DNA of 64,000 bases from Squalus acanthias (Eukaryota). The position numbers were made by a program, and so were the translations under genes. The number at the start of each line of letters is the position of its first letter. The stretch's first letter is position 1. The stretch is from contig CM059432.1 of assembly GCA_030390025.1 (NCBI GenBank), positions 48,982,001 through 49,046,000 of the forward strand. The letters are read 5' to 3'. Below are positions 3,537-61,469 of the stretch, in pieces. The notes under the pieces were generated by a model. It ran no database searches. It was not told the origin of the DNA and saw nothing but the letters and a program-made list of their open reading frames with translations.

Positions 3537-3617
3537 GTAAGATTTTCCAGTATGAAGAATTGCTGAATTCTGGAAGAGTAAATTAATCTCAGAGAAAGAA
3601 TATGTTGGAAAGTCAGA

Positions 3618-5323: not shown

Positions 5324-5382
5324 AGAGAAATAGAGGCCTTAGGTGCAGTAATTCAGCAAAAAAAAATGCTGCAAAACTTTTT

Positions 5383-6965: not shown

Positions 6966-6971
6966 ACAGGG

Positions 6972-9085
6972 AGCCAGGCATTGACCATCTCCAACAAGAG
7001 AGAGTTTAACCACCTCCCTATGGCATTACCATTGCTAAATCTACCTGTCGCAGATGCATCTGTCCATGACAGTATTAATAGCAGTGACCACCGTACAGTC
7101 CCGTCTTCACACCGAGGACACCCTCCATCGTGTTGTGTGGCACTACCACCGTGCTAAATGGGATAGATTCAGAACAGATCTAGCAGCTCAAAACTGAGCA
7201 TCCATGAGGCGCTGTGGGCCATCAGCAGCAGCAGAATTGTATTCCACCACAATCTGTAACCTCATGGCATATCCCTCACTCTCCCATTACCATCAAGCCA
7301 GGGGACTAACCCTGGTTTAATAAGGAGTGTAGAAGAGCATGCCAGGAGCAGCACCAGGCGTACCTAAAAATGAGGTGCCAACCTGGGAAGCTGCAACACA
7401 GGACTACATGCATGCTAAATAGCAGAAGCAGCATGCTATAGACAGGGCTAAGCGATCCCACAATCAACGGATCAGATCAAAGCTCTGCAGTCCTGCCACA
7501 TCCAGTCGTGAATTAAACAACCATCAAACAACTAACGGGAGGAGGAGGCTCCATGAATATCCCCATCCTCAATGATGGTGGAGCCCAGCACGTGAGTTTA
7601 AAAGACAAGGCTGAAGCGTTTGCAACCATCTTCAGCCAGAAGTACAGAGTGGATGATCCATATCGGCCAACTCCTGCGGTCCCCACCATCACAGAAGCCA
7701 GTCTTCAGCCAATTCGATTGACTCCACGTGATATCAAGAAACGGCTGAGATCACTGGATACAGTAAAGGCTATGGGCCCTGACAACCTCCCGGCTATCGT
7801 GCTGAAGACTTGTGCTCCAAAATTAGCCACGCCTCTAGCCAAACTGTTCCAGTACAGCTACAACACTGGCATCTATCCGACAATGTGGAAAACTGCCCAG
7901 GTGTGTCCTGTCCACAAAAAGCAGGACAAATCCAATCCGGCCAATTACCGCCCCAAGAGTCTACTCTCAATCATCAGCAAAGTGATGGAAGGTGTCATCG
8001 AAAGTGCTATCAAGTGGCACTTACTCACCAATAACCTGATCACTGATGCCCAGTTTGGGTACCGCCAAGACCACTCGGCTGCCGACCTCATTACAGCCTT
8101 GGTCCAAACATGGACAAAGGAGCTGAATTCCAGAGGTGAAGTGAGAGTGACTGCCCTTGACATCAAGGCAGCATTTGACTGAGTGTGGCATGAAGGAGCC
8201 CTAGTAAAACTGAAGTCAATGGGAATCGGGGGCAAAACTCTCCACTGGCTGGAGTCATACCTAGCGCAAAGGAAAATGGTTGTGGTGATTGAAGGTCAAT
8301 CATGACAGCCCCAGGACATTGCAGCAGGAGTTCCTCAGGGCAGTGTCCTAGGCCCGACCATCTTCAGCTGCTTCATCAATGACCTTCCCTCCAACATAAG
8401 GTCAGAAATGGGGATGTTCGCTGATGACTGCACAGTGTTCAGTGCCATTCACAACTCCTCAGATAATGAAGCAGTCCATGCCCGCATGCAACAAGACCTG
8501 GACAACGTTCAGGCTTGGGCTGATAAGTGGCAGGTAACATTCGTGCCACAGAAGTGCCAGGCAATGACTATCTCCAACAAGCGAGAGTCTAACCACCGCC
8601 CCTTGACATTCAATGGCATTACCATCACCGAATCCCCCACCATCAACATCCTGGAGGTCACCATTGACCAGAAACTTAACTGGACCAGCCACATAAATAT
8701 TGTGGCAACAAGAGCAGGTCAGAGGCTAGGAATTCTGCGGCGAGTGTCTCACCTCCTGGCTCCCCAAAGCCTCTCCACCATCTACAAGGCACAAGTCAGG
8801 AGTGTGATGGGATACTCCCCAGTTGCCTGGGAGGGTGCAGCTGTAACATCAATCAAAAAGCTCAACACCATCCAAGACAAAGCAGTCCGTTTGATTGTCA
8901 GCACATCCACCACTTTAAATATTTAGTCCCTGTGCCACCGGCATACCGTGGGGATAGTTTGTACAATTTACAGGATGCACTGCAGCAACTCGCCAAGGCT
9001 TCTTCGACAGCATCTCCTAAATCTCCACCACCTAGATGCAAAAAGGCAGGAGGTGCATGGGAATACCATCAACTCCAAATTTCCC
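6972..9085 (+). mobile_element. CR1/L2-group LINE family A, disrupted ORF2 (RT)
   Basis: ORFs 7553-8182 and 8408-8926 (NYRPKSLLS, ALDIKAAFD, MFADD); [10 protein letters not shown] lies between them; stops and frameshifts. Confidence 0.93.
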
Positions 9086-12063
9086 TCCATTCCTTCATTC
9101 TAATAAGAATGAAACCGGACGGACCACCCGGCATCGACCTCGGCACTGGCTACTGACATGGCAATGGCACACCCAGCCCAGTCAACCCTGCAAAGTCCTC
9201 CTCACCAACATCTGGGGATTTGTGCCAAAATTGGGAGAGCTGTCCCACAGACTAGTCAAGCAACAGCCTGACATAGTCATACTCACAGAATCATACCTTT
9301 CAGCCAATGTCCCAAACTCCTCCATCACTATCCCTGGGTTTGTCCTATCCCACTGGCAGGACAGACCCTCCAGAGGTGGCGGCACAGTAGTATACAGTCG
9401 GGAGGGAATGGCCCTGGGAGTCCTCAACATTGACTCCGGACCCCATGAAGTCTCATGGCTTCAGGTCAAGCATGAGCAAGGAAACCTCCTGCTGATTACC
9501 ACCGACCGATCTCCCTCGGCTGATGAATCAGTACTCCTCCATGTTGAACACCACTTGGAAGAAGCACTGAGAGCAACAAGGGCACAGAATGTACTCTGGG
9601 TGGGGGACTTCAATGTCCATCACTAGGAGTGGCTCAGTAGCACCACTACTGACCGAGCTGGCCTGGTCCTGAAGGACATAACTGCCAGTCTGGGCCTACG
9701 ACAGGTGGTGAGAGAACCAACACGAGGGAAAAACCTACTTGGCCTTGTCCTCACCAATCTACCTGTCGCAGATGCATCTGTCCATGACAGCATTGGTAGC
9801 AGTGACCACCGCACAATCATTGTGGAGACGAAGTCCCGACTTCACACTGAGGACACCCTCCATCGTGTTGTGTGGCACTACTGCCGTGCTAAACGGGATA
9901 GATTCGGAACAGATCTAGCAGCTCAAAACTGGGCATCCATGAGGCGCTGTGGGCCATTCGCAGCAGCAGAATTGTATTCCACCACAATCTGTAAACACAT
10001 GGCCCGGCATATCCCTCACTCTACCATTACCACCAAGCCAGGGGACCAACCCTGGTTCAACAAGGAGTGTAGAAGAGCATTCCAGGAGCAGCACCAGGCA
10101 TACCTAAAAATGAGATGCCAACCTGGGGAAGCTGCAACACAGGATTACATGCATGCTAAAAAGCAGAAGCAGCATGCTATAGACAGGGCTAAGCAATCCC
10201 ACAATCAACGGATCAGATCAAAGCTCTGTAGTCTTGCTACATCCCGTTGTGAGTGGTGGTGGACCATTAAACAACTGACGGGAGGAGGAGGCTCCAAGAA
10301 CATCCCCATCCTCAATGATGGTGGAGCCCAGCTCGTGAGTGCAAAAGACAAGGCTGAAGCGTTTGCAACCAACTTCAGCCAGAAGTGCCGAGTGGATGAT
10401 CCATATCGGCCTACTCCTGAGGTCCCCACCATCACAGAATCCAGTCTTCAGCCAATTCAATTCACTCCACGTGATATCAAGAAACGGCTGAGCGCACTGG
10501 ATACAGCAAAGGCTGTGGGCCCCAACAACATCCTGGCTATCATGCTGAAGCTTGTGCTCCAGAACTAGCCGTGCCTCTAGCCAAGCTATTCCAGTACAGC
10601 TACAACACTGGCATCTATCCGACAATGTGGAAAACTGCCCGGGTATGTCCTGTCCACAAAAAGCAGGACAAATCCAACCCAGCCAATTACCGCCCCATCA
10701 GTCTACTCTCAATCATCAGCAAAGTGATGGAAGGTGTCATCGAAAGTGCTATCAAGTGGCACTTACTCACCAATAACCTGATCACTGATGCCCAGTTTGG
10801 GTTCCGCCAAGACCACTCGGCTCCCGACCTCATTACAGCCTTGGTCCAAACATGGACAAAGGAGCTGAATTCCAGAGGTGAGGTGAGAGTGACTGCCCTT
10901 GACTTCAAGGCAGCATTTGACCGAGTGTGGCATCAAGGAGCCCGAGTAAAACTGAAGTCAATGGGAATCAGGGGGAAAACGCTCCACTGGCTGGAGTCAT
11001 ATCTAGCACAAAGGAAGATGGTTGTGGTGGTTGAAGGTCAATCATCACAGCCACAGGACATCGCTGCAGGAGTTCCACAGGGCAGTGTCCTAGGCCCAAC
11101 CATCTTCAGCTGCTTCATCAGTGACCATCCCTCCAACATAAGGTCAGAAATGGGGATGTTCGCTGATGACTGCACAGTGTTCCGCACCATTCACAACTCC
11201 TCAGACAATGAAGCAGTCCATGCCCGCATGCAACAAGACCTGGACGACGTTCAGGCTTGGGCTGATAAGTGGCAGGTAACATTTGCGCCAGAGAAATGCC
11301 AGGCAATGACTATCTCCAACAATCAAGAGTCTAACCACTTCCCCTTGACATTCAATGGCATTACCATTGCTAAATCCCCCACTATCAACATCCTGGGGGT
11401 CACCATTAACCAGAAACTTAACTGGACCAGCCACATAAATACTGTGGCAACAATAGCAGGTCAGAGGCTAGGCATTCTGCGGCGAGTGTCTCACCTCCTG
11501 ACTCCCCAAAGCCTTTCCACCATCTACAAGGCACAAGTGAGGAGTGTGATGGAATACTCTCCACTTGCCTGGATGAGTGCAGCTCCAACAACACTCAAGA
11601 AGCTCAACACCATCCAGGACAAAGCAGCCCGCTTGATTTGCACCCCATCCACCATCTTAAACATTCACTCCCTCCACCACCGATGTACCGTGGCTGCAGT
11701 GTGTACCATCTACAAGATGCACTGCAGCAACTCGCCAAGGCTTCTTCGGCAGCACATCCCAAACCCGCAACCTCTTCCACCTAGAAGGACAAGGGCAGCA
11801 GGTGCATGGGAACACCATCACCTCCAAGTTCCCCTCCAAGTCACACGCCATCCTGACTTGGAAATATATTGCCGATCCTTCCTCGTCGCTGGGTCAAAAT
11901 CCTGGAACTCCCTCCCTAACAGCACTGTGGGACTACCATCACCACACGGACTGCAGCGGTTCAAGAATGCGGCTCACCACCACCTTCTCAAGGGCAACTA
12001 GAGATGGGCAATAAATGCTGGCATTGCCAGCGACGCCCAGATCCCATAAACAAATTTTTAAAA
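9086..12063 (+). mobile_element. LINE family A, near-complete ORF2 (APE endonuclease + RT), frameshifted
   Basis: ORFs 9036-9626 (ILTESYL, GGGTVVY, VGDFNVHH), 9705-10568 (SDH), 10571-12001 (RT motifs); 3' end GGGCAATAAATGCTGGC; head-to-tail with the previous copy. Confidence 0.95.
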
Positions 12064-20062: not shown

Positions 20063-20099
20063 AGTTCTGACGAAGGGTCATTGACCTGAAACGTTAACT
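20063..20099 (+). ncRNA. Minimal hammerhead ribozyme motif (PLE family 2)
   Basis: AGUU-CUGACGA-A-GGGUC-AUU-GACCU-GAAACGUU-AACU. Confidence 0.8.
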
Positions 20100-26924: not shown

Positions 26925-26976
26925 AAAATGAGAAGTCGCACAACACCAGGTTATAGTCCAACAGTTTTATTTAAAA

Positions 26977-27013
26977 TTACAAGCTTTCGGAGCTCCGCTC
27001 CTTCTTCAGGTAA
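26977..27013 (-). ncRNA. Minimal hammerhead ribozyme motif (PLE family 1)
   Basis: Minus strand: UUAC-CUGAAGA-A-GGAGC-GGA-GCUCC-GAAAGCUU-GUAA. Confidence 0.8.
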
Positions 27014-27246
27014 AGGTACAGTGAGGGAATCTATTACACAGTATATATACACAGAGAACAATTTGTCTGCAGAGATACAATCTGTTAGGGAGGCATTACA
27101 TCAAAGACACATCAGAGTACAGCTAAGACAATGAGGTCGGTCACAGGGGGTCCAACGTGTCAAATGCTGCCGTCTGCAGTTAAGCTTTAAACTTTTTTTT
27201 TTGGTGTTTTTTTTAAAAAACTGTAAAGACAGACAACGATGTCGAG

Positions 27247-28881
27247 TCACGTTCTGTAGCGTGACATGAACCCGAGATCCCTATTGAAGCCGTCCTCATG
27301 GGTGCGGAACTTGGCTATCAGTTTCTGCTCGATGATTTTGCGTTGTCGTGTGTCTCGAAGGCCGCCTTGGAGAACGCTAACCCGCAGATCCGAGGCTGAA
27401 TGTCCTTGACTGCTGAAGTGTTCCCCGACTGGGAGGCAACCATCCTGCCTGGCAATTGTTGCGCGGTGTCCGTTCATACGTTGTCTCAGTGTCTGCATGG
27501 TCTCGCCGATGTACCATGCCGCGGTGCATTCTTTCCTGCAATGTATGAGGTAGACAACGTTGGCTGAGTCACATGAGTATGTACCATGTACCTGGTGGGT
27601 AGTGTCCTCAGGTGTGATGATGGTATCTGTGTTGATGATCTGGCATGTCTTGCAGAGGTTGCCGTGGCAGGGTTGTGTGGTGTCGTGGTCGCTGTTCTCC
27701 TGACAGCTGGGTAATTTGCTGCAAACGATGGTACTTTTGAGGTTAGGCGGCTGCTTGAAAGCGAGTAGTGGAGGCGTGGGGATGGCCTTAGCAAGGTGTT
27801 CATCATCATCGATGACATGTTGAAGGCTGCGAAGAACATGGCGTAGTTTCTCCGCTCCGGGGAAGTACTGGACGACGTAGGGTACTCTGTTGGTTGTGTC
27901 CCGTGTTCGCCTTCTGAGGAGGTCTATGCGGTTTTTCGCTGTGGCCCATCGGAACTGTCGATTGACGAGTCGAGCGTCATATCCCGTTCTTACGAGGGCG
28001 TCTTTCAGCGTCCGTAGGTGTCCAAAGCGTTCCTCCTCGTCTGAGCAGATCCTGTGTATTCGCAGGGCTTGTCCATAGGGGATGGCTTCTTTAACGTGGT
28101 TAGGGTGGAAGCTGGAGAAGTGGAGCATCGTGAGGTTGTCCGTGGGCTTGCGGTAGAGTGAAGTGCTGAGGTGTCCGTCTTTGATGGAGATTCGTGTGTC
28201 CAAGAATGAAACCGATTCTGAGGAGTAGTCCATGGTGAGTTTGATGGTGGGATGGAACCTGTTGATGTTATCGTGTAGTCCTTTCAGTGATCCTTCGCCA
28301 TGGGTCCAAAGGAAGAAGATGTCGTCGATATATCTGGTGTACAGCGTTGGTTGGAGGTCCTGTGCAGCGAAGTAGTCTTGCTCGAACTTGTGCATGAAGA
28401 TGTTGGCGTATTGGGGTGCGAATTTGGTCCCCATGGCTGTTCCGTGTGTTTGGGTAAAAAACTGGTTGTCGAAGGTGAAGACATTGTGGTCAAGGATGAA
28501 GCGGATGAGTTGTAGGATGGCGTCTGGAGATTGGCTGTTGTTGGTGTTGAGTACTGAGGCTGTCGCAGCGATGCCGTCATCGTGGGGGATATTGGTGTAG
28601 AGTGCCGATACGTCCATTGTGGCGAGGAGTGTTCCTGGTTCAACTGGTCCATGGGTGCTGAGTTTCTGCAAGAAGTCTGTAGTGTTGCGACAGAAGCTGG
28701 GGGTTCCCTGTACGATGGGTTTCAGGATGCCCTCGACGTACCCAGAGAGGTTCTCACACAGGGTTCCGTTGCCTGATACGATAGGACGTCCGGGTGTGTT
28801 GGCTTTGTGTATCTTTGGGAGGCAGTAGAAGTCTCCTACGCGGGGAGTACGTGGGATGAGAGCGCGTAGGATGTTTTGAAG
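27247..28881 (-). CDS. Uninterrupted but 5'-truncated PLE reverse transcriptase + GIY-YIG endonuclease
   Basis: FYCLPKIHK..PGRPIVS, ATMDVSALYTNI, QTHGTAMG, RYIDDIF, FLD, YRKPT, CHGNLCKTC linker, VVYLIHC...WYIGET...RMNGH...HFSSQGH. Confidence 0.93.
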   Translation of the reverse strand, partial: LQNILRALIPRTPRVGDFYCLPKIHKANTPGRPIVSGNGTLCENLSGYVEGILKPIVQGTPSFCRNTTDFLQKLSTHGPVEPGTLLATMDVSALYTNIPHDDGIAATASVLNTNNSQSPDAILQLIRFILDHNVFTFDNQFFTQTHGTAMGTKFAPQYANIFMHKFEQDYFAAQDLQPTLYTRYIDDIFFLWTHGEGSLKGLHDNINRFHPTIKLTMDYSSESVSFLDTRISIKDGHLSTSLYRKPTDNLTMLHFSSFHPNHVKEAIPYGQALRIHRICSDEEERFGHLRTLKDALVRTGYDARLVNRQFRWATAKNRIDLLRRRTRDTTNRVPYVVQYFPGAEKLRHVLRSLQHVIDDDEHLAKAIPTPPLLAFKQPPNLKSTIVCSKLPSCQENSDHDTTQPCHGNLCKTCQIINTDTIITPEDTTHQVHGTYSCDSANVVYLIHCRKECTAAWYIGETMQTLRQRMNGHRATIARQDGCLPVGEHFSSQGHSASDLRVSVLQGGLRDTRQRKIIEQKLIAKFRTHEDGFNRDLGFMSRYRT

Positions 28882-29241
28882 GTTCTCCAAGGTGGCCTTC
28901 GAGACACACGACAACGCAAAATCATCGAGCAGAAACTGATAGCCAAGTTCCGCACCCATGAGGACAGCCTCAATAGGGATCTCGGGTTCATGTCACACTA
29001 CAGAACGTGACTCGACATCGTTGTCTGTCTTTCCAGTTTTTAAAAAAATCACCAAAAAAAAAAGTTAAAAGCTTAACTGCAGACGGCAGCATTTGACACG
29101 TTGGACCCCCTGTGACCCACCTCATTGTCTTAGCTGTATCTGATGTGTCTTTGATGTAATGCCTCCCTAACAGATTGTATCTCTGCAGACACATTGCTCT
29201 CTGTGTATATATACTGTGTAATAGATTCCCTCACTGTACCT

Positions 29242-29278
29242 TTACCTGAAGAAGGAGCGGAGCTCCGAAAGCTTGTAA
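29242..29278 (+). ncRNA. Minimal hammerhead ribozyme motif (PLE family 1)
   Basis: UUAC-CUGAAGA-A-GGAGC-GGA-GCUCC-GAAAGCUU-GUAA. Confidence 0.8.
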
Positions 29279-29374
29279 TTTTAAATAAAACTGTTGGACT
29301 ATAACCTGGTGTTGTGCGACTTCTCATTTTTGTCCACCCCAGTCCAACACCGGCATCTCCGCTTCTTGGAATAG

Positions 29375-31854: not shown

Positions 31855-33268
31855 TGGAGACTTGTCCAGATAGCTTGCATCCCAGGTTGCTAAGGGAATT
31901 GGCGGAGGAGATAGTGGAAAGGCTTGCCATAATTTTTCAATTTTCGGCAGATGCGGGGGAAGTGCCTGAGGATTGGAAAGTGGCAAATGTGACACCATTG
32001 TTCAAGAAAGGGTGTAAGGACAATCCTAGTAACTACAGGCCGGTCAGTTTAATATCAGTGGTGGGTAAAGTTTTCGAAACAATAATCAAGGAAAAAAATT
32101 AACGGGCACTTGGAGAGATTTAAGTTAATTAAGGAGAGCCAACACGGATTTGTAAAAGGCAGATCGTGTTTGACTAATCTAATTGAATTTTTTGATGAAG
32201 TAACAGAGAGAATTGATGAAGGGAATGCAATGGATGTTGTCTACCTGGATTTTCGAAAGGCGTATGACAAAGTACCACATAGAAGGCTGGTTAACAAAAT
32301 TGAGGCTCATGGAATAGCTGGGTCAGTGGCAGCTTGGATAAGGAATTGGCTTAAGGACAGAAAACAGCGAGTTGTGGTAAATGGCTGTTTTTCAGACTGG
32401 AGGATGGTAGACAGTGGTGTTCCCCAAGGGTCAGTGCTGGGGCCACTGCTTTTTTTGATATATATAAATGACCTGGATATTGGAATACAGAGTAGAATTT
32501 CTAAATTTGCCGATGACACCAAACTTGGGGATGTGGCAAACAGTGATGATGATACCAATCGACTGCAACAGGACATAGAAAGCCTAGCAGAATGGGCAGA
32601 CAAGTGGCAGATGGAATTTAATACAGAGAAGTGTGAGGTGATGCATTTTGGCAGAAGGAACAGGGAGAGGCAATATACACTTAATGGCACAGTTTTAAAA
32701 AGAGTGCAGGGACAGAGGGACCTGGGAGTTAATGTGCATAGGTCCCTGAAGGTGGCGAGACATATTGAGAGAGTGGTCAACAAAGCATATGGGATCTTGG
32801 GCTTCATATATAGAGGTATTGAGTACAAAAGTAGAGAAGCTATGCTGAACCTTTATAAAGTGCTGGTTAGGCCACAACTGGAGTATTGCGTCCAGTTCTG
32901 GTCACCACACTTTAGGAAGGATGTGAAAGCCCTTGAGAGGGTGCAGGGGAGATTTACCTGAATGGTTCCGGGATGGGGGATCTTAGCTACAAGGACAGGT
33001 TGGAGAAGCTGGATTTGTTTTCATTAGAGCAAAGGAGGTTGAGGGGTGATTTGATAGAGGTGTACAAGATTATGACGGGTTTGGATAGGCTAGATAGGGA
33101 AAGGCTGTTCCCACTAGTTGATGGTACAAGGACTAGGGGACACAGATTTATGGTCTTGGGCAAGAGATACAGGGGGGCTGTGAGGAAAAACTTTTTTACA
33201 CAGCGAGTGGTAATGACCTGGAACTCGCTGCCGACGGAAGTGGTGGAAGCGGAGACACTCTATGACTC
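31855..33268 (+). mobile_element. CR1 RT domain fragment
   Basis: ORFs 31854-32102, 32110-32961 ([35 protein letters not shown]) and 32973-33272. Confidence 0.95.
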
Positions 33269-33451
33269 TTAGCTTTAGGAACAATGCAGAAAGCAAACCC
33301 CAGAAAATAGGGCAAGTGTGTGCACTGGAAGGTTGGTGCAGGGAGTTCTAGCCGACAGTGGAAGGTTTAGTGATGTTATGTAAAATGATAATGTAACCTT
33401 TAAGCTATTAATTTAATTGTTAAGGGTTTATAGAGTAAATGACGGGTATGA

Positions 33452-33733
33452 CACCATGGTGGTTATATTACTGGACTAGTAATTCAGAGGCCAGAACTAA
33501 TAATCTGGAGACGTGAGTTCAAATCCCGCCATTGCAGTTTGTGAATTATAATTCAGTTAATTAAATAAATCTGGAATAAAAAGCTAGTATCAGTAATGGT
33601 GACCATGAAGCTATTGTAAAAACCCATCTGGTTCACTAATGTCTTTTAGGGAAGGAAACCTGCTGTTCTTACCCGGTCTGGCCTATCTGTAACTCCAGAC
33701 CCACAGCAAGGTGGTTGATATTTAACTGCCCTC
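33452..33733 (+). mobile_element. tRNA-derived SINE 5' part fused to a LINE A body
   Basis: GGTGGTTATATTACTGGACTAGTAA...GAGTTCAAATCCC (B-box-like)...GGGAAGGAAACCTGC; related SINE at 54955-55215. Confidence 0.75.
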
Positions 33734-35297
33734 TGGGGACTTGTACCAGAATTGGGAGGGCTGTCCCACAGACTTGTGAAGTAACAGCCTGACATAGGTA
33801 TGATCCTGTGTGCATGACTATCAATAAATGTCCTAGACTCCTCCATCACTATCCCTGGGTATGTCCTTTCCCACTGGCAGCACAGTGGTATACAGTCGGG
33901 AGAGAGTGGCCCTGGAAGCCCTCAACATTGACTATGGACCCCACAAACTCTCATGGCATCAGGTCAAACATGGACAAGGAAACCTCCTACTGATTAAAGT
34001 GATGAAAGTTGTTATCGACTATGCTATCAAGTGGCACTTACTCACCAAAAACCTCTTCACCGATGCTCAGTTTGGGTTCCAACAGGGTCACTCGGCTCTA
34101 GATCTCAATACAGCCTTGGTCCAAAAATGGACAAAAAATCTGAATTGCAGAGGTAAGGTGAGAGTGACTGCACTTAACATCAAGGCAGAATTTCACCGTA
34201 AAATTGAAGTCAATGGGAATCAGTGGGAAAACTATCCACTGGCTGGAGTCATACCTAGTATAAAGTAAGTTGGTGGTAGTTGTTGGAGGCCAATCATCTC
34301 AGCCCAGGACATCGCTGCAGCAGTTCCTCAGCCATCTTCAGCTACTTCATCAATGATCTTCCCTCCATCATTAGTTCAGAGGTGGGGATGTCTGCTGATG
34401 ATTACACAGTGTTCAGTTTCATTCGCAACTCCTCAGATAATGAAGCAGTCCGTGTCCGCATGCAGCAAGACCTGGACAACATCCAGGTGTGGGCTGATAA
34501 GTGGCAAGTAACATTTGCGCCACACAAGTGCCATGTAATGTCCATCTTCAACAAGAGAGAGTCTAACCAGCTCTCCTTGACATTCAATAGAGTTACCATT
34601 GTTGAATCCCCCACCATCAACACCCTGGGGGTCACCATTTATCAGAAACTTAACTGGACCAGCCACATAAATACTGTGGCTACATCAGCAGGTCAGAGGC
34701 TGGGTATTCTGCAGCGAGTGTCTCACCTCCTGACTCCCCAAAGCCTTTCCACCATCTACAAGGCAAAAGTAAGGAGTGTGATGGAATACTCTCCACTTGC
34801 CTGGATGAGTGCAGCTCCAACAACACTCAAGAAGCTTGACACCATCCAGGACAAAGCAGCCTAATTGATTGGCATCCCATCCACCACCTTTAACATTCAC
34901 TCCCTCCACCACCGGCACACCGTGGCTGCAGTGTGTACCATCCACAAGATGCACTGCAGCAACTCGATAAGCCTTCTTCGACAGCAGCTCCAAACCCGCG
35001 ACCTCTACCATCTAGAAGGACAAGGGCAGCAGGCACATGGGAACACCACCACCTCGAAGTTCCCCTCCAAGTCACACACCATCCTGACTTGGAAATATAT
35101 CACCGTTCCTTCGTCGTCACTGGGTCAAAATCCTGGATCTCCCTCCCTAATAGCACTGTGGGAGTACCTTAATCACACAAACTGCAGCGGTTAAAGAAGG
35201 TGGTTCCCCACCAGCTTCTCGAGGGCAATTAGAGATGGGCAATAAATGCAGGCCTTGCCAGCGATGCCCACATCCTATGAATGTATAAATAAAAAAT
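33734..35297 (+). mobile_element. LINE family A with internal deletions
   Basis: Endonuclease start (HQVKHGQGNLLLI) joined directly to RT (KVMKVVIDYAIKWHLL) near 33996; 3' end present. Confidence 0.9.
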
Positions 35298-35734: not shown

Positions 35735-38700
35735 CGAGGTGCCTTTGGGTGTGACATTTTTGAGGTGCAATGCTTTTGAAAGGTGATTCCATTGTGATGC
35801 TGGAGATGCACATTAGATGGAAGGTTTTTAATTCTATCAATAAGCTCTGTTAGCAAATGACAATAACACATTTGCTTGGAAATTACAGTTACCATAAAAG
35901 ATTACACCAGCTGTAATTGGGACAAGCAGCAGCAAAATCAGCTAAAGCATAGAATGTGAGGATAAGACTAATTCATAAAATTAGTACTGGTATAATTTAC
36001 AGTTGGAGGAGGAATGGACCATATTGTTCAGCATGCACATTGCACTAACGATATATATTCTGCCCATAGAATATGGGCTATGGGAACTGAATAATCATCT
36101 GTAGCTATGGAGAGTCTTGCAGAATCATCGATTATTCTGTAGACACAGCACAACGAGCATTGCATTCCGTGCTCCCCTGGCACTTCAGCTGGTTGGGGAA
36201 GACAAATCGGATCAGGATAATGCTATGGCTGGTAGGAATAAAAAAGAGTTCTACGCTCTCAGTGACCAGCTGCTGAGACCACCGGAACAGATTCATGCAG
36301 ATCAATGCCCGCCTCCCCTGCAGCTCCCGCAATGCATTTTTTTGTCACAATCATTATGTGCCACCCTTAATTGAAAGGGAGCATAGAGTACAATAGCTCC
36401 TGGGAGACCGAGGCTGCTCTCTTCAGTGCTGGCTATTGACAGCCTGAACCAACCATGGATAGAAGCAGAGCACAGATACAGATAAGACCATGCAATCACC
36501 AGCCTTATAGAAACATAGAAGATAGGAGCAGGAGTAGGCCATTCAGCCCCTCGAGCCTGCTCCGCCATTCAATGAGATCATGGCTGATCATCCAAATTCA
36601 GTACCCTGTCCCTGCTTTCTCCCCATATCCCTTGATCCCTTTAGCTTTAAGAAATATATCTAACTCCTTCTTGAATATATTTAATGAATTGGCCTCCACT
36701 GCCTTCTGTGGTAGAGAATTCCACAGGTTCACCACATTCTGGGTGAAGAAATTCCTCCTCATCGCAGTCCTAAATGGCTTACCCCTTATCCTTAGACTGT
36801 GACCCCCTGGTTCTGGACTCCACGGCCATCGGGAACATCCTTCCTGCATCTAGTCTGTCTAGTCCTGTTAGAATTTTATAAGTTTCAATGAGATCCCCTC
36901 TCATTCTTCTAAACTCCAGCGAGTATAAGCCCAATCGACCCAATCTCTCCTCATATGTCATTCCTGCCATCCCAGGTATCAGCCTGGTGAATCTTCACTG
37001 CACTCTCTCCATGGCAAGAACATCCTTCCTCAGATAAGGCGACCAAAACTGCACACAATGCTAAAGGTGTGGTCTCACCAAGGCCCTGTACAACTGCAGC
37101 AAGACATCCTTGTTCCTGTACTCGAACCCTTTCGCTACGAAGGCCAACATACCATTTGCCTTCTTAACCGCCTGCTGCACCTGCATGCTTACCTTCAGCG
37201 ACTGGTGCACAAGGACACCCAGGTCTCGTTGCACTTCCCCTTCTCCCAATCTATTGCCATTCAGATAATAGCCTGCCTTCCTGTTTTTGACACCAAAGTG
37301 GATAACCTCGCATTTATCCACGTTATATTGCATCTGCCATGCTTCTGCCCAATCACCCAACCTGTCCAAATCATACTGGAGTTTCTTGGCATCCCACCCA
37401 GCTTTGTGTCGTCTGCAAACTTGGAGATATTACATACAATTCCCTCGTCTAGATCATTAATATATATTGTGAATAGCTGGGGTCCTAGAACCGATCCCTG
37501 CGGTACCCCACTAGTCACTGCCTGCCACTCCAAAAAAGATTTGTTTATTCCAACTCTTTGCTTTCTGTCTGCCAACCAGTTCTCTATCCAAGTCAATCCC
37601 TTGCCCCCCAATCCCATGTGCCTTAACTTTTCACGCTAATCTCTTATGCGGGACCTTATCGAAAGCCGTCTGAAAGTCCAAATACACCACATCCACTGGT
37701 TCTCCCTTATCTATTTTCCCAGTTACATCCTCAAAAAATTCCAGTAGATTAGTCAAGCACGATTTACCTTTTGTAAATCCATGTTGACTTTGAACGATCC
37801 TGTCACTGTTTTCCAAGTGCTCTGCTATTACATCTTTGTAATGGACTCTAGCATTTTCCCCACTACCGATGTCAGGCTTACCGGTCTATAATTCCCTGTT
37901 TTCTCTCTACCACCTTTTTTGAATAGTGGGGTAACATTAGCTACCCTCCAATCCATGGGTACTGTTCCAGTGTCTATAGAATTTTGGAAGATGACCAGCA
38001 ATGCATCTACTATTTCTAGGGCCACTTCCTTAAGTACCCTAGGATGTAGATTATCAGGCCCTGGGGATTTATCGGCCTTCAATCCCGTCAATTTCCCTAA
38101 CACTATTTCCCTACAAATACTGATTTCTTTCAGTTCCTCCCTCTCATTAGACCCTATGTTCCCCGACATCTCTGGGAGGTTATTTGTGTCCTCCTTTGTG
38201 AAGACAGAACCAAAGTATGTATTTAATTGGTCAGCCATTTCTTTGTTCCCCATTATAAATTCCCCTGATTCTGACTGCAAGGGACCTACGCTTGACTTCA
38301 CCAATCTTTTTCTCTTCACATATGTATAAAAGCTTTTACAGTCAGTTTTTATGTTCCCTGAAAGCTTCCTCTCATACTCTATTTTCCCCCTCTTAATTAA
38401 TCCCTTCGTCCTTCTTTGCTGAATCCTAAACTGCTCCCAATCCTCAGGTTTTCTGCTTTTTCTGGCCAATTTATATGGCCTCTCCTTGGATCTTATGCTA
38501 TCCCTAATTCCCTTTGTTAGCCACGGTTGAGTCACCTTTTTTGTTTTATTTTTATGCCAAACAGTGATGAACAAATTCTGTAGTTCATTCATGCGATCTT
38601 TGAATGTTTGCCATTGCCTATCCACTGTCAACCCTTTCAGTGACATTCCCCAATCAATCCTACCCAACTCGCGCCTCATACCATCGTAGTTTCCTTTATT

Positions 38701-39357
38701 TAAATTCAGGACCCTAGTCTCTGAGTCAACTACTTCACTCTCCATCTTAATGAAGAATTCTATCATATTATGATCACTCCGACCCAAGGGGCCTCGCACA
38801 ACAAGATTGCTAATTAATCCTTTCTCATTACATAATACCCAGTCTTAGATGGCCTGATCTCTAATTGGTACCTCGACATATTGGTCCAGGAAACCATCCC
38901 GTATACACTCCAGGAATTCTCCTCCACAGTATTGTTACTAATTTGGTTAGCCCAATCTATATGTAGATTAAAGTCACCCATGATAACTGCTGTGCTCTTA
39001 TTGCACGGTTCTCTAATTTCCCTTTTAATGCCATCCCCAACCTCCGTATTACTGTTTGGGGGTCTATACACCACTCCCACTAACGTTTTCTGCCCCTTGG
39101 TATTTCTCAGTTCTGCCCACACAGATTCCACATCATCAGAGCTAATATCCTTCCTTACAATTGTGTTAATCCCCTCTTTAACCAGCAATGCTACCCCACC
39201 TCCTTTTCCTTTTTGCCTATCTTTCCTGAATATTGAATACCCCTGTATGTTGAGTTCCCAGCCTTGGTCACCCTGGAGCCATGTTTCCGTAATCCCAATC
39301 ATATCATATTCGTTTACCTCTATTTGCGCAGTTAATTCATCCACCTTATTACAAATG

Positions 39358-40232
39358 TGAGAAGTCACACAACACCAGGTTATAGTCCAACAGATTTATT
39401 TAAAATTACAAGCTTTCGGAGCTATCCTGCCCCTTCTTCAGGTAAAGTTATTGTGAGAGAATCTACCAGAATTCACAGAATATAAACACAGAGAAAATGC
39501 AGAGATTCAATCTTTCCCTACATCAAAGACACACTAAGAGCACAGCCAAGACAATGAGATGTGTCCCAGGGAGTCCAACGTGTCAAAACACCTGCTGGCT
39601 GCATATCCTCTCCATTTGGGTTTGTTTTTTGTGTTTGTTTCTTGTGTTTGTTTTTTTTTTAAAACTGGAAAGACAGGCAACGATGTCAAGTCACGTTCTG
39701 TAGCGTGACATGAACCCGATATCCCGATTGAGGCCGTCCTCATGAGTGCGGAACTTGGCTATCAGTTTCTGCTCCATGATTTTGCGTTGTCGTGTATCCC
39801 AAAGGCCGCCTTGGAGAACGCTAACCCGCAGATCCGAGGCTGAATGCCCTTGACTGCTGAAGTGTTCCCCGACTGGGAGGCAACCATCCTGCCTGGCGAT
39901 TGTTGCGCGGTGTCCGTTCATACGTTGTCTCAGTGTCTGCATGGTCTCGCCGATGTACCATGCTCTGGGGCATCCTTTACTGCAACGTATCAGTTAGACA
40001 ACGTTGGCCGAGTCACATGAGTATGTACCATGTACCTGGTGGGTAGTGTCCTCACGTGTGATGACGGTATCTGTGTTGATGATCTGGCATGTCTTGCAGA
40101 GGTTGCCGTGGCAGGGTTGTGTGGTGTCGTGGTCGCTGTTCTCCTGACAGCTGGGTAATTTGCTGCGAACGATGGTACTTTTGAGGTTAGGCGGCTGCTT
40201 GAAGGCGAGTAGTGGAGGCGTGGGAATGGCCA
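39358..40232 (-). mobile_element. Penelope-like element family 1, single-arm insertion D (no tail, no inversion)
   Basis: GIY-YIG region (ORFs 39691-39942, 39994-40254); 12-bp TSD TTATTACAAATG at 39346-39357 and 40233-40244. Confidence 0.95.
39406..39445 (-). ncRNA. Minimal hammerhead ribozyme motif (PLE family 1)
   Basis: Minus strand: UUAC-CUGAAGA-A-GGGGC-AGGAUA-GCUCC-GAAAGCUU-GUAA. Confidence 0.78.
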
Positions 40233-41193
40233 TTATTACAAATGCTCCTCGCATTAAGACACAAAGCCTTCAGGCTTGTTTTTTTAACGCTCTTAGACCT
40301 TTTAGAATTATTATTTACTGTGGCCACGTTTGATTTAAACCCTTGATTTCTCTGACTGCCACCTTTGTTTTTTTCCTTCCTGACTTTTGCTTCTATCCTT
40401 GTTTCCCTTTCCTCTGTCTCCCTGCACAGGTTCTCAACCCCCTGCCATTTTAGTTTAAACCCTCCCCCAGAGCACTAGCAATTATTGAGCATTACATTAC
40501 ATTTTAAAGTAGCGCGTCACGAAGCGTGGACAGATCAGTGGCATATTACAGTAGAGCCCTTCCAGGGTCTCCAAGCTCTTTCACTGTGTGCTGACTCCCT
40601 GCAAAGAGGCTTGATCTACATTGCCCAGTTTATTTGGTTGACCTGAACACTTGAGACAATGAGAAAATCGTGGATTTGCACAAATACTTAGTAGCATACT
40701 ATTTAAGTTGATTACAATATGATAATTAAGCTGACCTAAGGCTAAGACCTAGCGTATCCGCGTTCTGGCATAGTTTCTGGCCCTTCCAGCAAAATCTCAT
40801 TGAACTTATAGTGGGAGTACACCAGAAGGACCACAGTTTTCAAGCCAAAGGGTTTAAAGGCCAAACTATTGGCCTTGAAAGGAGGAACCAAGCTATTTTT
40901 GAACAAACGCTGTCTGTGTGACTTAATCAGCTAAATATATAATAACCAATTATCTTTGAATTCAACTGTCGGGTAAGTTATCAGAAAATAATCGAACTGA
41001 TTAGAATCTTCACAGGAAAAGTTAAGGTAGACTAGCTAGCTTCCATAGTCAGAAAGATTACAAGAAAGAAAAGTATTATGCGTATCTAAAAGTTATCTAT
41101 AAAGGCATAGCTTACAACAACAGCAACTTGCATTTATATAGCGCCCTTAACATAGTAAAACATCCCAAGGCACTTCACAGGAACGTTATCAAA

Positions 41194-44100
41194 CCTACTT
41201 GACCTCGTGCTCACCAATCTACCTGTCGCAGATGCATCTGTCCATGACAGCATTGGCAGCAGTGACCACCGCACAGTCATTGTGGAGACGAAGTCGAAGT
41301 CCCATCTTCACACTGAGGACACCCTCCATCGTGTTGTGTTGAACTACCACCGTGCTAAATGGGATAGATTCAGAACAGATCTAGCAGCTCAAAACTGGGC
41401 ATCCATGAGACGCTGTGGGCCATCAGCAGCAGCAGAATTGTATTCCACCACAATCTGTAACCTCATGGCCCGGCATATCCCTCACTCTACCATTATCACC
41501 AAGCCAGGAGACCAACCCTGGTTCAATAAGGAGTGTAGAAGAGCATGTTGGGAGCAGCACCAGGCATACCTAAAAATGAGGTGCCAACCTGGAGAAGCTG
41601 CAACACAGGACTACATGCATGCTAAAAAGTGGAAGCAGCATGCTATAGACAGGGCTAAGCGATCCCACAATCAACGGATCAGATCAAAGCTCTGCAGTCC
41701 TGCCACATCCAATCGTGAATGGTGGTGGACCATTAAACAGCTAATGGGAGGAGGAGGCTCCATGAATATTCCCATCCTCAATGATGGTGGAGCCCAGCAC
41801 GTGAGTGCAAAAGACAAGGCTGAAGCGTTTGCACGTGATATCAAGAAACGGCTGGGCCCACTGGATACAGCAAAGGCTATGGGCCCCGACAACATCCCGG
41901 CTATCGTGCTGAAGACTTGTGCTCCAGAACTAGCCGCGCCTCTAGCCAAGCTGTTCCAGTACAGCTACAACACTGGCATCTATCCGACAATGTGGAAAAC
42001 TGCGCAGGTGTGTCCTGTCCACAAAAAGCAGGACAAATCCACTCCGGCCAATTACCGCCCCATCAGTCTACTTTCAATCATCAGCAAAGTGATGGAAGGT
42101 GTCATCGACAGTGCTTTCAAACGGCACTTACTCACCAATAACCTGCTCACTGATGCCCAGTTTGGGTTCCGCCAAGACCACTCGGCTCCAGACTTCATTA
42201 CAACCTTGGTCCAAACATGGACAAAGGAACTGAATTCCAGAGGTGAGGTGAGAGTGACTGCCCTTGACATCAAGGCAGCATTTGACCGAGTGTGGCATGA
42301 AGGAGCCCTAGTAAAACTGAAGTCAATGGGAATCAGGGGGAAAACGCTCCACTCGCTGGAGTCATACCTAGCACAAAGGAAGATGGTTGTGGTGATTGAA
42401 GGTCAATCATCACAGCCCCAGGACATCGCTGCAGGAGTTCCTCAGGGGAGTGTCCTAGGCCCAACCATCTTAGAAACATAGAAACATAGAAGATAGGAGC
42501 AGGAGTAGGCCATTCGGCCCCTCGAGCCTGCTCCACCATTCGATGAGATCATGGCTGATCATCCAAACTCAGTACCTTGTACCTGCCTTCTCCCCATATC
42601 CCTCGATACCTTTAGCCTTAAGAAATATATCTAACTCATTCTTGAATATATTTAATGACTTGGCCTCAACTACCTTCTGTGGTAGAGAATTCCACAGGTT
42701 CACCACTCTCTGGGTGAAGAAATTCTTCCTCATTTCTGTCCTAAATGGCTTACCCCTTATCCTTAGACTGTGACCCCTGGTTCTGGACTCTCCGACCATC
42801 GGGAACATTCTTCCTGCATCTAGTTTGTCCAGACCTGTCAGAATTTTATATGTTTCGATGAGATCCCCTCTCATTCTTCTATACTCCAGCGAGTATAAGC
42901 CCAATCGACCCAATCTCTCCTCATATGTCATTCCTGCCATCCCAGGTATCAGCCTTGTGAATCTTCGCTGAACTCCTTCCATGGCAAGAACATCCTTCCT
43001 CAGATAAGGCGACCAAAACTGCACACAGTACTCAAGGTGTGGTCTCACCAAGGCCCTGTACAACTGCAGCAGGACATCCCTGTTCCTATACTCAAACCCT
43101 TTCGCTATGAAGGCCAACATACCATTTGCCTTCTTCACCGCCTGCTGCACCTGCATGCTTACTTTCAGCGACTGGTGCACAAGGACACCCAGGTCTCGTT
43201 GCACTTCCCCTTCTCCCAATCTATTGCCATTCAGATAATAATCTGCCTTCCTGTTTTTGACACCAAAGTGGATAACCTCGCACTTATCCACATTATATTG
43301 CATCTGCCACGCTTCTGCCCACTCACCCAACCTGTCCAAATCATCCTGGAGTTTCTCGGTATCCTCCTCGCAGCCCACACTCCCACCCAGCTTTGTGTCA
43401 TCTGCAAACTTGGAGATATTACATTTAGTTCCCTTATCTAGATCATTAATGTATATTGTGAATAGCTGGGGTCCAAGGACCAATCCCTGCGGTACCCCAC
43501 TAGTCACTGCTTGCCACTCGGAAAAAGACCCATTAATTCCTACTCTCTGCTTTCTGTCCGCCAACTAGTTCTCTATCCAAGTCAATACCTTGCCCCCAAT
43601 CCCATGTGCCTTAACTTTACACGCTAATCTCTTATGCGGGACCTTATCGAAAGCCTTTTGAAAGTCCAAATACACCACATCTACTGGTTCTCCCTTATCT
43701 ATTTTCCCAGTTACATCCTCAAAAAATTCCAGTAGATTAGTCAAGCACGATTTACCTTTTGTAAATCCATGTTGACTTTGTCCGATCCTGTCACTGTTTT
43801 TCAAGTGCTCAGCTATTATATCCTTTATAATGGACTCTAGCATTTTTCCCTAATACCGATGTCAGGCTTACCGGTCTGTAATTCCCCGCTTTCTCTCTAC
43901 CACCCTTTTTGAATAGTGGGGTAACATTAGCTACCCTCCAATCCATGGGTACAGTTCCAGATTCCATCGAATGTTGGAAGATGATCAGCAATGCATCTAC
44001 TATTTCTAGGCCCACTTCCTTAAGTACCCTAGGATGTAGATTATCAGGCCCTGGGGATTTATCGGCCTTCAATCCTGTCAATTTCCCTAACACCATTTCC

Positions 44101-46048
44101 CTGCAAATACTGATTTCTTTCAGTTCCTCCCTTTCAATCGACCGTATGTTCTCCAACATCTCTGGGAGGTTATTTGTGTCCTCCTTTGTGAAGACAGAAC
44201 CAAAATATGCATTTAATTGGGCTGCAATTTCTTTGTTCCCCATTATAACTTCCCCCGCTTCTGACTGCAAGGGACCTACACTTGATTTCACTAATCTTTT
44301 TCTCTTCGCATATCTATAAAAGCTCTTACAGTCAGTTTTTATGTTCCCAGCAAGCTTACTTTCATATTCTATTTTCCCCTTCTTAATTAATCCATTTGTC
44401 CTCCTTTGTTGAATCCTAAACTGCTCCCAATCCTCAGGGCGACCGCTTTTTCTGGCCAATTTATATGCCCTCTCCTTGGATCTTATGCTATCCCTAATTT
44501 CCCTTGTTAGCCACGGTTGAGTCACCCTTTTTGTTTTATTCTTATGCCACACTGGGATGAACAAATTCTGTAGTTCATCCATGCAGTCTTTGAATGTTTG
44601 CCATTGCCTATCCACCGTCAACCCTTTGAGTGACATTCCCCAATCAATCCTACCCAATTCGCGCCTCATACCATCGTAGTTTCCTTTATTTAAATTCAGG
44701 ACCCTAGTCTCTGATTCAACTACTTCACTCTCCATCCTAATGAAGAATTCTATCATATTATGATCACTCTGACCCAAGGGGCCTCGTACAACAAGTTTGC
44801 TAATTAATCCTTTCTCGTTACATAATACCCAGTCTAAGATGGCCTGATCTCTGGTTGGTTCCTCGACATATTGTTCCAGAAAACCATCTCATAAACATTC
44901 TAGGAATTCCACCTCCACAGTATTTTTACTAATTTGGTTAGCCCAATCTATATGTAAATTAAAGTCACCCATGATGACTGCTGTGCCCTTACTGCATGCT
45001 TCTCTAATTTCCCTTTTAATTCCGTCCCCAACCTCCGTATTACTGTTTGGAGGTCTATATACCACTCGCACTAACGTTTTGTGCCCCATGTTATTTCTCA
45101 GTTCTACCCGTACAGATGCTTCATCAATGACCTTTCCTCCAACATAAGGTCAGGAATGGGGATGCTCGCTGATGACTGCAGTGTTCAGTGCCATTCACAA
45201 CTCCTTAGATAATGAAGCAGTCCATGCCCGCATGCAACAAGACCTGGACGACGTTCAGGTTTGGGCTGCTAAGTGGCAGGTAACATTCACGCCACACCAG
45301 TGCCAGGCAATGACTATCTCCAACAATCGAGAGTCTAACCACCGCCCCTTGACATTCAACAGCATTACCATCGCTGAATCCCCCACCATCAACATCCTGG
45401 GGGGTCACCATTGACCAGAAACTTAACTGGACCAGCCACATAAATACTGTGGCAACAAGAGCAGGTCAGAGGCTAAGTATTCTGTGGCGAGTGTCTCACC
45501 TCCTGACTCACCAAAGCCTTTCCACCATCTACAAGGCACAAGTCAGGAGTGTGATGGAATACTCTCCACTTGCTGGGATGAGTGCAGCTCCAACAACACT
45601 CAAGAAGTTCGACACCATCCAGGACACAGCAACCTATCCACCACCTTAAACATTCGCTCCCTCCACCACCGGCGTACCGTGGCTGCAGTGTGTACCATCT
45701 ACAAGATGCACTGCAGCAACTCGCCAAGGCTTCTTAGGCAGCACCTCCCAAACCCGCGACCTCTTCCACTTAGAAGAACAAGGGCAGCAGGCGCATGGGA
45801 ACACCACCACCTCCAAGTTCCCCTCCAAGTCACACACCATCCTGACTTAGAAGTATATCGCCGATCCTTCATTGTCGCTGGTTTAAAATCCTGGAACTCC
45901 CTACCTAACAGCACTGTGGGAGTACCTTCAACATGCGGACTGCAGCGGTTCAAGAAGGTGGCTCACCACCACCTTCTCAAGGGCAACTAGGGATGGGCAA
46001 TAAAAGCTGGCCTTGCCAGCGACGCCCACATCCCATAAGCGAATTTTA
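41194..46048 (+). mobile_element. LINE family A (41194-42471 plus 45117-46048) interrupted by CR1
   Basis: ORF 41207-42481 ends at GSVLGPTI; sequence resumes GCTTCATCAATGACC at 45117 and runs to the family 3' end. Confidence 0.93.
42472..45116 (-). mobile_element. CR1 LINE, 5'-truncated, close relative of 36508-40480
   Basis: ORFs 42569-43564, 43565-43843, 43809-44777, 44889-45089; 3' (TAGAAACA)n. Confidence 0.95.
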
Positions 46049-47171: not shown

Positions 47172-48181
47172 TTTGACTGGTTATAACATAATTGTGGAAA
47201 AGACCTGCAAGAGTTAGTCTCATAGGAAGCTGTATTAACAGCAGTAGAGAAGCAGCCATTATCCTAGGAGACTTCTTCAGTAAATTTAGGCCAGGAAAGT
47301 CCCCAGAGCTGCTGCCACTCTGCCACCATAACTTAACCAGAAGTGTGACAGAAACCCCATTTACGCCTGTAATCAGTGTTTCCGTCGCACTTGTGGTGCA
47401 GTAATAGCAGCGGAGTGTGAGCAGCTTTGAGGAAATGCCTGACCTTGTTGTTTCAACTGTTTTCTACTTTGTCCCCCCGACACTGTCAAGTAACACATAT
47501 CCCTGCCCATTCTTCCAATGGTGCCAGGCACTCACATCAACTGAGTATGAGTGGTATCGGGGCTCATTTTGTTATACACACTTCAACCATACTATTTCAT
47601 CAAAATAAATCATAATCTCCTGATTTACTGACCCAAGTACCTGATTCAATAAAAATTCATACAAAAAGACAACTGGTTGCTGCTGAGTTACTAAATCAAG
47701 GCCTAGATTTTCCGCTCAGCCATTGTGCTGGTGGAAGTGCGACTGGGCGGGAGTTCTGCTGACTGTAAAGACGAACCCCTTGTCCTGGCTAATTTTCTGG
47801 GGTCAGGCTCATCAACAGGGTTGCAGAGATGGTTGTGGCTGGATTTGTAGTAGGCTGAATGCAAGAAACAAAACTGTATTTTTTTTTAAAGTGCTTTGGC
47901 CTGTAGTATCAATCACATTATAATTGACTGCATAGGCTTTCCGGCTAGTTACATTTTAAATCCCCTTCCGCTGCCCTACACACGGAACACACATGCATTG
48001 CTTGCGTTCAGTTTCGCTCGGACCCAAATGATGAGTATTTACATTGTGTGATGTACTTCTGTGATTTGGATGCCATGTGAATACACCTGCCCATAATTCG
48101 GAGATGCCGGTGTTGGACTGGGGTGGACAAAAATGAGAAGTCGCACAACACCAGGTTATAGTCCAACAGTTTTATTTGAAA

Positions 48182-48223
48182 TCACAAGCTTTCGGAGCTA
48201 TCGATCGCCCCTTCCTCAGTTGA
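48182..48223 (-). ncRNA. Minimal hammerhead motif with one stem I mismatch
   Basis: Minus strand: UCAA-CUGAGGA-A-GGGGC-GAUCGAUA-GCUCC-GAAAGCUU-GUGA. Confidence 0.65.
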
Positions 48224-48367
48224 AGTAAAGAGATACAGAATCGCCAAAGCATATATAGATAGAGAACAATGCATGTGTTACTTACAAAAGTAGTCGTCTG
48301 CTTTTGTAAGTAACACATGCATTGTTCTCTATCTATATATGCTTTGGCGATTCTGTATCTCTTTACT

Positions 48368-48409
48368 TCACCTGAGGAAGGGGCGATCGATAGCTCCGAA
48401 AGCTTGTGA
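48368..48409 (+). ncRNA. Minimal hammerhead ribozyme motif (PLE family 1)
   Basis: UCAC-CUGAGGA-A-GGGGC-GAUCGAUA-GCUCC-GAAAGCUU-GUGA. Confidence 0.78.
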
Positions 48410-49319
48410 TTTCAAATAAAACTGTTGGACTATAACCTGGTGTTGTGCGACTTCTCATTTCTGCCCATAATTGGCAGACCTATCCTATACTCCTGTCACT
48501 TCCGACAGAAAATCCAGGAAGTGTCAGGGGCAACTAAGGAGCTGGCAGAGTGATACCTGAAGAATTTTTCTGGCATTCCACTGGATTTAAACCTGCTCCA
48601 CGGTGTAACTCCTGAATTAAATCTAGGGTTATCATCCTGAAAATACTCTTGTGTTCAGTAACAAATTCAGTTTGTAGGTGTGTCGTGTGCATTCTGGGGG
48701 AGTTAATTAATGAATGGGAAATACAAAAGTCAAAAATTCACTGCTAACCAGTCAACTTTCCACGGGTGAACTTTGGACCTTTATTTATAGCACTCAGAAA
48801 TTCCAGACTTGCTATTACAGTGTTATGAAAATTTGTTAAACCCTTAACAAAATGAAATCAATGCATCTCTTCAAATACCTTGGTTTTATTTCTGGTTTCC
48901 TCTGCAATGTCTTTCTATTTTTTTCCTCATAGAGCAGCAGCATCATTGCAGACAGGGGTCTACTTTAATCTTCATTTTGCTTTGTCAGCAACGTAACAAA
49001 TTTGCATTTAATCCCCTTGGACATATCATTTCAGAAATATTCAATTCACACCAGAAAGTGCTACTGTCCCATCTCCTTTCCCAGCCAGTACTAGAATTTT
49101 GTCCCAGAGGTTTAATTCATTTGTGTATTTGTTCATGCTTAACAATGATCTCATTTGTAAACAAGTTATAGAAAACTATATTTCAACAAAAGCAATAAAA
49201 CGTTTAACAGCAATGTAAAAATAAGTGCAAATGTGAAAATTTTATACAGAATGTGCCAAACTGCACAGTGCTTTTGTCTTTCTCCGACGCGATTATATGC
49301 TGTAAGTGATTTTTTTAAG

Positions 49320-61399: not shown

Positions 61400-61469
61400 T
61401 TTAAAATAAAACTGTTGGACTATAACCTGGTGTTGTGCGACCTCTCAAGAAAGATGGTATGACAGGGAT

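Follow-up and report, generated by a model that had tools for sequence, protein, structure and literature searches.

A minimal hammerhead motif in the pseudo-LTRs of an abundant Penelope-like retrotransposon family of Squalus acanthias

Hammerhead motifs and the insertions that carry them

A stretch of 64,000 nucleotides of the Squalus acanthias genome (GCA_030390025.1, contig CM059432.1, positions 48,982,001 to 49,046,000; here called the window) was scanned on both strands, and seven hammerhead motifs of one family, family 1, were recovered, all of them proposed earlier in a sequence-only reading (Table 1). The copy A motif is 37 nt long and consists of helices I and II and the palindrome AGCU; it lacks a helix III loop and carries an additional A behind A9. 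In the window copies the stems, the loop lengths of 3 to 8 nt, the variable N7 (A, G, or C), and the extra A are as that reading described them, and the cut that it predicted after position 29274 agrees with our parse of copy A+. Its variants of stem I hold generally, except that the B- copy reads UCAA, which breaks pair 2.1:1.1, and GAAAGCUU, which it took to be invariant, is so in the window but not across the genome, where 11,111 copies are without U at position 17. The canonical core is exact in five of the seven copies; the two type C copies read CCGACGA, a U4C change absent from the earlier description. An eighth GAAAGCTT lies at 38360 without a hammerhead core. An Rfam scan of the window gave no matches at gathering thresholds. 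Loop II of the B-type copies (window 48385-48390) holds a second palindrome, in an AUCGAU or GAUCGAU context, which in co-folding permits an extended inactive duplex between two copies.

Table 1. Hammerhead motifs, insertions, and related features, in window positions
Feature	Position	Strand	Detail or basis
Copy A+ hammerhead, minimal type I	29242-29278	+	sequence, parse, folding
Copy A+ helix I	29242-29245/29275-29278	+	UUAC/GUAA
Copy A+ core CUGAAGA	29246-29252	+	extra A at 29253
Copy A+ helix II	29254-29258/29262-29266	+	GGAGC/GCUCC, 3-nt loop
Copy A+ GAA	29267-29269	+	AGCU at 29270-29273
Copy A+ N17 = U	29274	+	predicted cut 3' of U 29274
Copy A- hammerhead	27013-26977	-	identical to A+; 3' end of truncated element
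Copy B+ hammerhead	48368-48409	+	
Copy B- hammerhead	48223-48182	-	
Copy C+ hammerhead	61362-61399	+	U4C core; identical to C-
Copy C- hammerhead	59383-59346	-	U4C core; identical to C+
Copy D hammerhead	39445-39406	-	single copy
Insertion A	26925-29361		minus-strand 5'-truncated Penelope-like element and inverted 3'-end copy; self-BLAST, TSD search
Insertion A target duplication, 12 bp	26913-26924/29362-29373		TSD search
RT and GIY-YIG-type ORF, 3' part, 5'-truncated	27250-28883	-	Pfam, BLAST, sequence
Inverted arm of A (ORF end, 3' UTR, hammerhead, tail)	28882-29361	+	
Conserved stretch 3' of hammerhead, predicted hairpin	29291-29361	+	
Insertion B, 362-bp inverted pair	48099-48460		12-bp target duplication
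Insertion C, inverted pair with ORF remnants	59261-61447		15-bp target duplication
Insertion D, single 5'-truncated copy	39358-40232	-	12-bp target duplication, found by eye
Second-family minimal hammerhead	20063-20099	+	helix I AGUU/AACU, helix II GGGUC/GACC, palindrome ACGU
Second-family core	57117	-	
Second-family core	1615	-	

Self-comparison of the window by BLAST placed the motifs at the ends of one repeat family. The seven motifs go back to four insertion events, of which three left inverted pairs and the fourth a lone truncated copy. Each insertion has a target duplication of 12 to 15 bp, and the motifs therefore represent four independent samples rather than seven. The two arms of insertion A are identical in 440 of 452 alignment columns (97%), and the minus-strand open reading frame (ORF) that the A pair frames matches Pfam RVT_1 (E 1.9e-09). 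This ORF fragment has 89% DNA identity to a full-length copy (BLAST, locus L031) and shows YIDD, a CX4CxxC linker, and a CCHH-type endonuclease region; the ORF fragment of insertion C has a GIY-YIG Pfam match (E 9.4e-05). In insertion A, the distance from the predicted cut to the end of the arm is 87 nt in the plus arm but 56 nt in the minus arm, leaving a one-sided tail of 31 nt. These short and long element ends, 56 and 87 nt after the predicted cut, fall just 5' of the ORF start in tandem copies.

Between the hammerhead and the ATG lies a conserved stretch with a predicted hairpin (window 29291-29361; positions 4645-4720 of L031), with the short ends in its loop and the long ends directly after it. 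This hairpin, with its insertion ends, resembles the reverse transcription (RT) start stem-loop of PAc, an element of Anolis carolinensis. Folding stability of the region around the hammerhead and hairpin was not significant (z scores of -0.58 and +0.48).

Insertions often lie inside CR1/L2-like LINE remnants (loci L031, L032, L033, L036, and L038; window 39358-40232), and frames such as VDVVYMDFSKAFDK adjoin insertion ends within these remnants. Many LINE-like RT and endonuclease remnants occur on both strands of the window (7500-12000, 32000-34900, and 36900-45990). Very short inverted insertions whose junction lies inside or adjoins the hammerhead form perfect palindromes (L035 6540-6720, L172, and L120-L121).

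The host element and its tandem copies

The element that hosts the motif is a Penelope-like retrotransposon with RT and GIY-YIG domains, and the motif sits in its pseudo-LTR (pLTR). A pattern across the pLTR-ORF junction matched the genome 354 times, with some matches in head-to-tail arrays of 3,138-nt period. Twenty junction loci were taken from the first 100 matches listed, 15 in order on one contig and 5 picked for visible tandems; at least two same-strand hammerheads about 3.1 kb apart were present in 14 of these 20, and an uninterrupted ORF of 891 to 892 amino acids in 11, all with CUGAGGA and AGCU. In one copy examined, the ATG follows the predicted cut by 91 nt and the unit from cut to cut is 3,136 nt. 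Tandem full-length elements were the only places seen where two hammerheads could meet in one sense transcript. The arrays with uninterrupted ORFs show that the family is young. Head-to-tail full-length arrays with uninterrupted 892-amino-acid ORFs and the 3,138-nt period are found at L182 (G000:C2:211213200-211223100), L181, and L184.

The full-length protein of 892 amino acids matches RVT_1 (E 1.4e-08). It gave no GIY-YIG Pfam match at E 0.05, and its VVY...YIG, R, H, E, N pattern is visible; a PDB sequence search with it gave no match at E 0.01. The linker between RT and endonuclease reads CHGKLCKTC at residue 753 and fits CX2-5CxxC, a motif known from Neptune and Nematis and missing from Penelope/Poseidon (PMC8557442). 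The Cys linker thus fits a Neptune-type element, as judged from the protein sequence, although Nematis shares the motif. The single ORF with RT followed by a C-terminal GIY-YIG-type endonuclease, the partial tandems, the inverted 5'-truncated copy, and the one-sided tail are all found in Neptune-clade EN+ elements (Craig et al. 2021, PMC8557442), and partial tandems, inverted 5'-truncated copies, and tails of 30 to 40 bp are typical of Penelope-like elements (PMC8557442). In contrast to those Neptune-clade elements, the present insertions have clear 12- to 15-bp target duplications and no microsatellite target. A 2026 preprint ties retrozymes to Penelope-like pLTRs (10.64898/2026.07.22.740005). 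A non-LTR retrozyme was ruled out here, the units being coding elements of 3.1 kb and the short copies inverted truncations.

In PAc, hammerhead cleavage is protein assisted and two internal RT start sites account for the tail (Frangieh et al. 2024, PMC11167929). Like the present element, PAc is organized in tandem, carries its pLTR hammerhead close to where the ORF begins, and prefers two 3' ends, which gives a tail on one side. It belongs, however, to the Penelope/Poseidon clade, its hammerhead overlaps the start codon, and its RT start sites lie 111 to 118 nt inside the ORF (PMC11167929), whereas the present element carries the CX2-5CxxC linker, has its ATG 91 nt after the cut, and ends before or at the ATG.

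Variation of the motif across the genome

Matches to the core pattern number 68,351 in the 3.7-Gb genome, whereas a reversed control yields 9, so that a chance match is excluded; all hammerhead-core patterns together find more than 83,000 copies and the control patterns 74. Variation at the level of lineages is confined to tolerated positions (N7, loop II, U or C at N17, and wobbles), and the core bases are kept in all expanded lineages with the exception of U4C. Of the 11,111 copies without U at position 17, the first 100 listed have C there in 98 cases and A and G once each; the resulting lineage, whose cleavage site reads CUC, numbers about 11,000 genome-wide and is seen for example at L131-L160. 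The U4C lineage numbers 3,952 copies. By hand count it has U at 10.5 in 75 of its first 100 listed copies, against 1 of 100 among U4 copies, and a C-A mismatch at 10.5:11.5 in 5 of the 100, so that constraint on this pair is weak. U4C occurs in none of the 11 fetched loci with intact ORFs; one partial tandem of full length does carry it, but there the ORF is interrupted.

Other changes stay at background level among the roughly 83,000 copies: U4 to A or G (470 copies), 16.2 other than C (504), and G8 (1,369, mostly after C7, as CpG decay predicts). Noncomplementary 15.2/16.2 variants are likewise at background level genome-wide, and a search for other palindrome bases gave scattered 15.2 changes of family 1 in 28 of the first 100 listed (hand count). 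In 29 parsed copies from an anchor-only search (2 more were unparsed), the core varies only at U4 (1 copy), N7, G12 (1 copy), and N17 (5 copies); G12 is thus kept in 28 of 29 and the other invariant core bases in all 29. A larger set of 139 distinct anchored copies, 131 parsed and 8 unparsed, has the extra nucleotide between 9 and 10.1 as A in 130 of the 131 and G-C at 10.1-11.1 in every one, although the set is biased, most of it having come from search patterns in which some core positions are fixed. The pattern of variation fits, as far as sequence can tell, selection on source elements for a hammerhead still able to cut. The selection that shaped it acted on source elements elsewhere and not on the window copies.

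Compensatory covariation, a central claim of the sequence-only reading, is limited within family 1. In the parsed copies, pair 2.3:1.3 is C-G in 65, U-A in 32, U-G in 4, and mismatched in 2 (28 copies adjoining inversion junctions were omitted from the helix I counts), and pair 10.5:11.5 is C-G in 104, U-A in 18, U-G in 6, and mismatched in 3. Elsewhere in helix II most changes produce wobble pairs, and in helix I 17 of 103 copies have a mismatch at 2.4:1.4. Among 16 family 1 variants, 98.9% of the cells are paired and the covariation score exceeded all 500 shuffles, a shuffle that ignores relatedness; however, double-sided changes are confined to 2 of the 11 pairs, and 225 of the 500 shuffles reached as many. 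A tree of 26 copies, based on the 3' end of the ORF, has good support for only 3 of its 23 inner branches, and independent covariation events therefore could not be counted.

A second family, also present in the window (Table 1), has the palindrome ACGU instead of AGCU (ACGU in 50 of the first 100 listed, hand count) and flanks another Penelope-like element, with 32% protein identity, as a direct repeat 3,176 nt apart (L161). Adding 7 second-family copies to the family 1 variants raises the number of pairs with changes in both strands to 8 of 11. One of these is 15.2/16.2, which is GC in family 1 and CG in family 2 and complementary in both. This swap is the best support for the palindrome, although it amounts to a single comparison between two clades.

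Helix III and the proposed role of the hammerhead

Helix III-less hammerheads were predicted and found in the pLTRs of Xena, Poseidon, and Neptune elements by Cervera and de la Pena in 2014 (PMC4209133). That paper lists the extra nucleotide, G10.1-C11.1, the palindromic 15.2-16.2, and compensatory changes, and it reports opposite-strand pairs, no cleavage of monomers, and low cleavage of dimers; in a review, cleavage by dimers is described as both established and slow (PMC6765202). The hammerhead fold and a helix III formed only between two copies, both put forward for the window from sequence, are supported here and were thus already in print for Penelope-like elements. With these min-HHRs (PMC4209133) the present motif shares the conserved core CUGANGA ... 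GAAA with its NUH site, the type I arrangement, a helix I of 4 to 5 bp, the extra nucleotide after A9, G10.1-C11.1, the palindromic 15.2/16.2, the absence of loop III, the pLTR location, opposite-strand pairs, solo copies, and the proposed dimer mechanism, and the lamprey min-HHR has the helix I strands UCAC/GUGA found here. It differs in its 5-bp helix II, against 6 to 8 bp in several published families, and in its more than 83,000 copies, against the 2,000 to 9,000 reported (PMC4209133). Both this class and the proposal of dimer cleavage date back ten years, and what is described here is a very abundant new member of that class. Rescue of an unstable helix III by two-copy pairing is also known from the double hammerheads of newt satellite 2 and ASBVd (Forster et al. 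1988, via PMC4209133 and PMC6765202) and from the small hammerheads of Lunse et al. (PMC5785218); the repeats of those systems form short tandem arrays and have a small loop III, whereas here loop III is absent and the partners lie 3.1 kb apart.

The shared helix appears to be the 4-bp AGCU (15.1-16.1) and not, as had been proposed, the 6-bp palindrome AAGCUU, since in the C17 lineage the 6-mer is lost while the 4-mer stays intact. The same lineage gives CUC at the site, so that the predicted cut is not after CUU only. Pairing of A14 with U17 would lock core residues. Neither insertion A nor a single intact unit contains a second same-strand AGCU-H-GU(A/G)A site, and an intramolecular helix III with a distant partner was rejected. 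Each window copy either belongs to an opposite-strand pair or stands alone, and none can dimerize in cis; the copies, which face in opposite directions, are likely inactive leftovers, inert passengers of their insertions.

In nearest-neighbor models, which omit tertiary contacts of the core, the double hammerhead of copy A has a predicted energy of -14.5 kcal/mol, two monomers -17.2, and an inactive duplex through helix II -26.9; the order is the same in all seven window copies, and the active dimer is the optimum in none. With natural flanks, the pairing probability of helix I is 0.0 in both copies tested (A and an intact element), and that of helix II is 0.0 in copy A and 1.0 in the intact element. 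This modeled outcome agrees with low activity.

We consider it likely that this is the minimal pLTR hammerhead of a young and abundant Penelope-like family, which would need the double-hammerhead form to cut, in transcripts of tandem source elements, with weak activity and probably aided by protein, the window copies being inert. In such a transcript, two copies would be joined by the shared AGCU helix III and by swapped helix I strands, and the core of each would cut its partner's CUU or CUC site after N17. Multimeric transcripts would thereby be divided into RNAs of unit length, and the element's own protein would probably assist. Reverse transcription would then begin 56 to 87 nt downstream of the site and cross it on uncut or religated, circular RNA, and every insertion would thereby keep a whole ribozyme. 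Helix I, of only 3 to 4 bp and with its mismatches at 2.4:1.4, speaks against cutting by dimers, as do the folding energies and pairing probabilities, the U4C lineage, which has spread to 3,952 copies, and the PAc results on insertion and RNA ends given below.

It is possible, though we think it unlikely, that the ribozyme-derived structure is kept mainly for a noncatalytic role, as a binding or folding platform for the element's protein beside the RT start hairpin, and that cleavage is negligible in vivo. The energies that disfavor the active dimer, the uncut site retained by every insertion, and a U4C lineage that includes a full-length partial tandem are all in keeping with such a role, as is the success of Naiad elements, which thrive without canonical hammerheads (PMC8557442); in PAc, ribozyme mutants were without effect on insertion in vitro and no RNA-seq ends fell at the cut site (PMC11167929). 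However, conservation obeys catalytic rules, with U or C at N17 in the expanded lineages and G appearing just once among 100 listed copies without U; the palindrome is kept in both families; and U4C, the sole core change to spread, is reported to keep activity in a viroid, lower in vitro yet allowing infectivity (PMC3088659). The element's protein might instead hold the core of a monomer for cleavage, with only A15.1-U16.1 closed over a 2-nt loop and the palindrome incidental. The PAc hammerhead was cut on addition of protein, with no dimer stated (PMC11167929), and partners 3.1 kb apart in cis are a long reach for 4-bp helices. A 2-nt loop, however, does not require the complementarity of 15.2/16.2 that is seen across the two families here (GC, CG) and across animals in the supplement alignment of PMC4209133 (G/C, C/G, U/A), and in that paper the monomer is inactive without protein, which leaves monomer cleavage improbable.

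The intact cores of five of the seven window copies could also be read as functional ribozymes under host selection, for example in host transcript processing. The youth of the family accounts for that intactness (G12 in 28 of the 29 anchor-selected copies), the copies lie in truncated or inverted insertions with target duplications, and a read-through transcript of insertion A would pair its two 97%-identical arms; we regard this reading as highly improbable, and host domestication was rejected.

Returning to the double hammerhead, all family 1 lineages have the same AGCU and a near-identical helix I. It may be, as a speculation to which we give little credence, that the hammerhead is a tandem-copy sensor common to the subfamilies and that the U4C lineage, with its weakened core, spread via trans cutting by canonical partners or by tuned-down cleavage. 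We found no report of U4C in Penelope-like hammerheads in the openly accessible literature, and none in the passages covered of PMC4209133 and its supplement. No report of this element family in cartilaginous fish was found in the same open literature.

The family offers a test set for the role of the ribozyme in vivo, in its intact tandem elements, its more than 83,000 young copies, and its C17 versus U17 and U4 versus C4 lineages, and these natural lineages permit sequence rules to be compared with cleavage rates. Within it, a bench test is worthwhile only for the U4C and C17 lineages. If the hammerhead were indeed a tandem-copy sensor, the U4C and canonical lineages would form a natural series showing the part that the ribozyme plays in the Penelope cycle.
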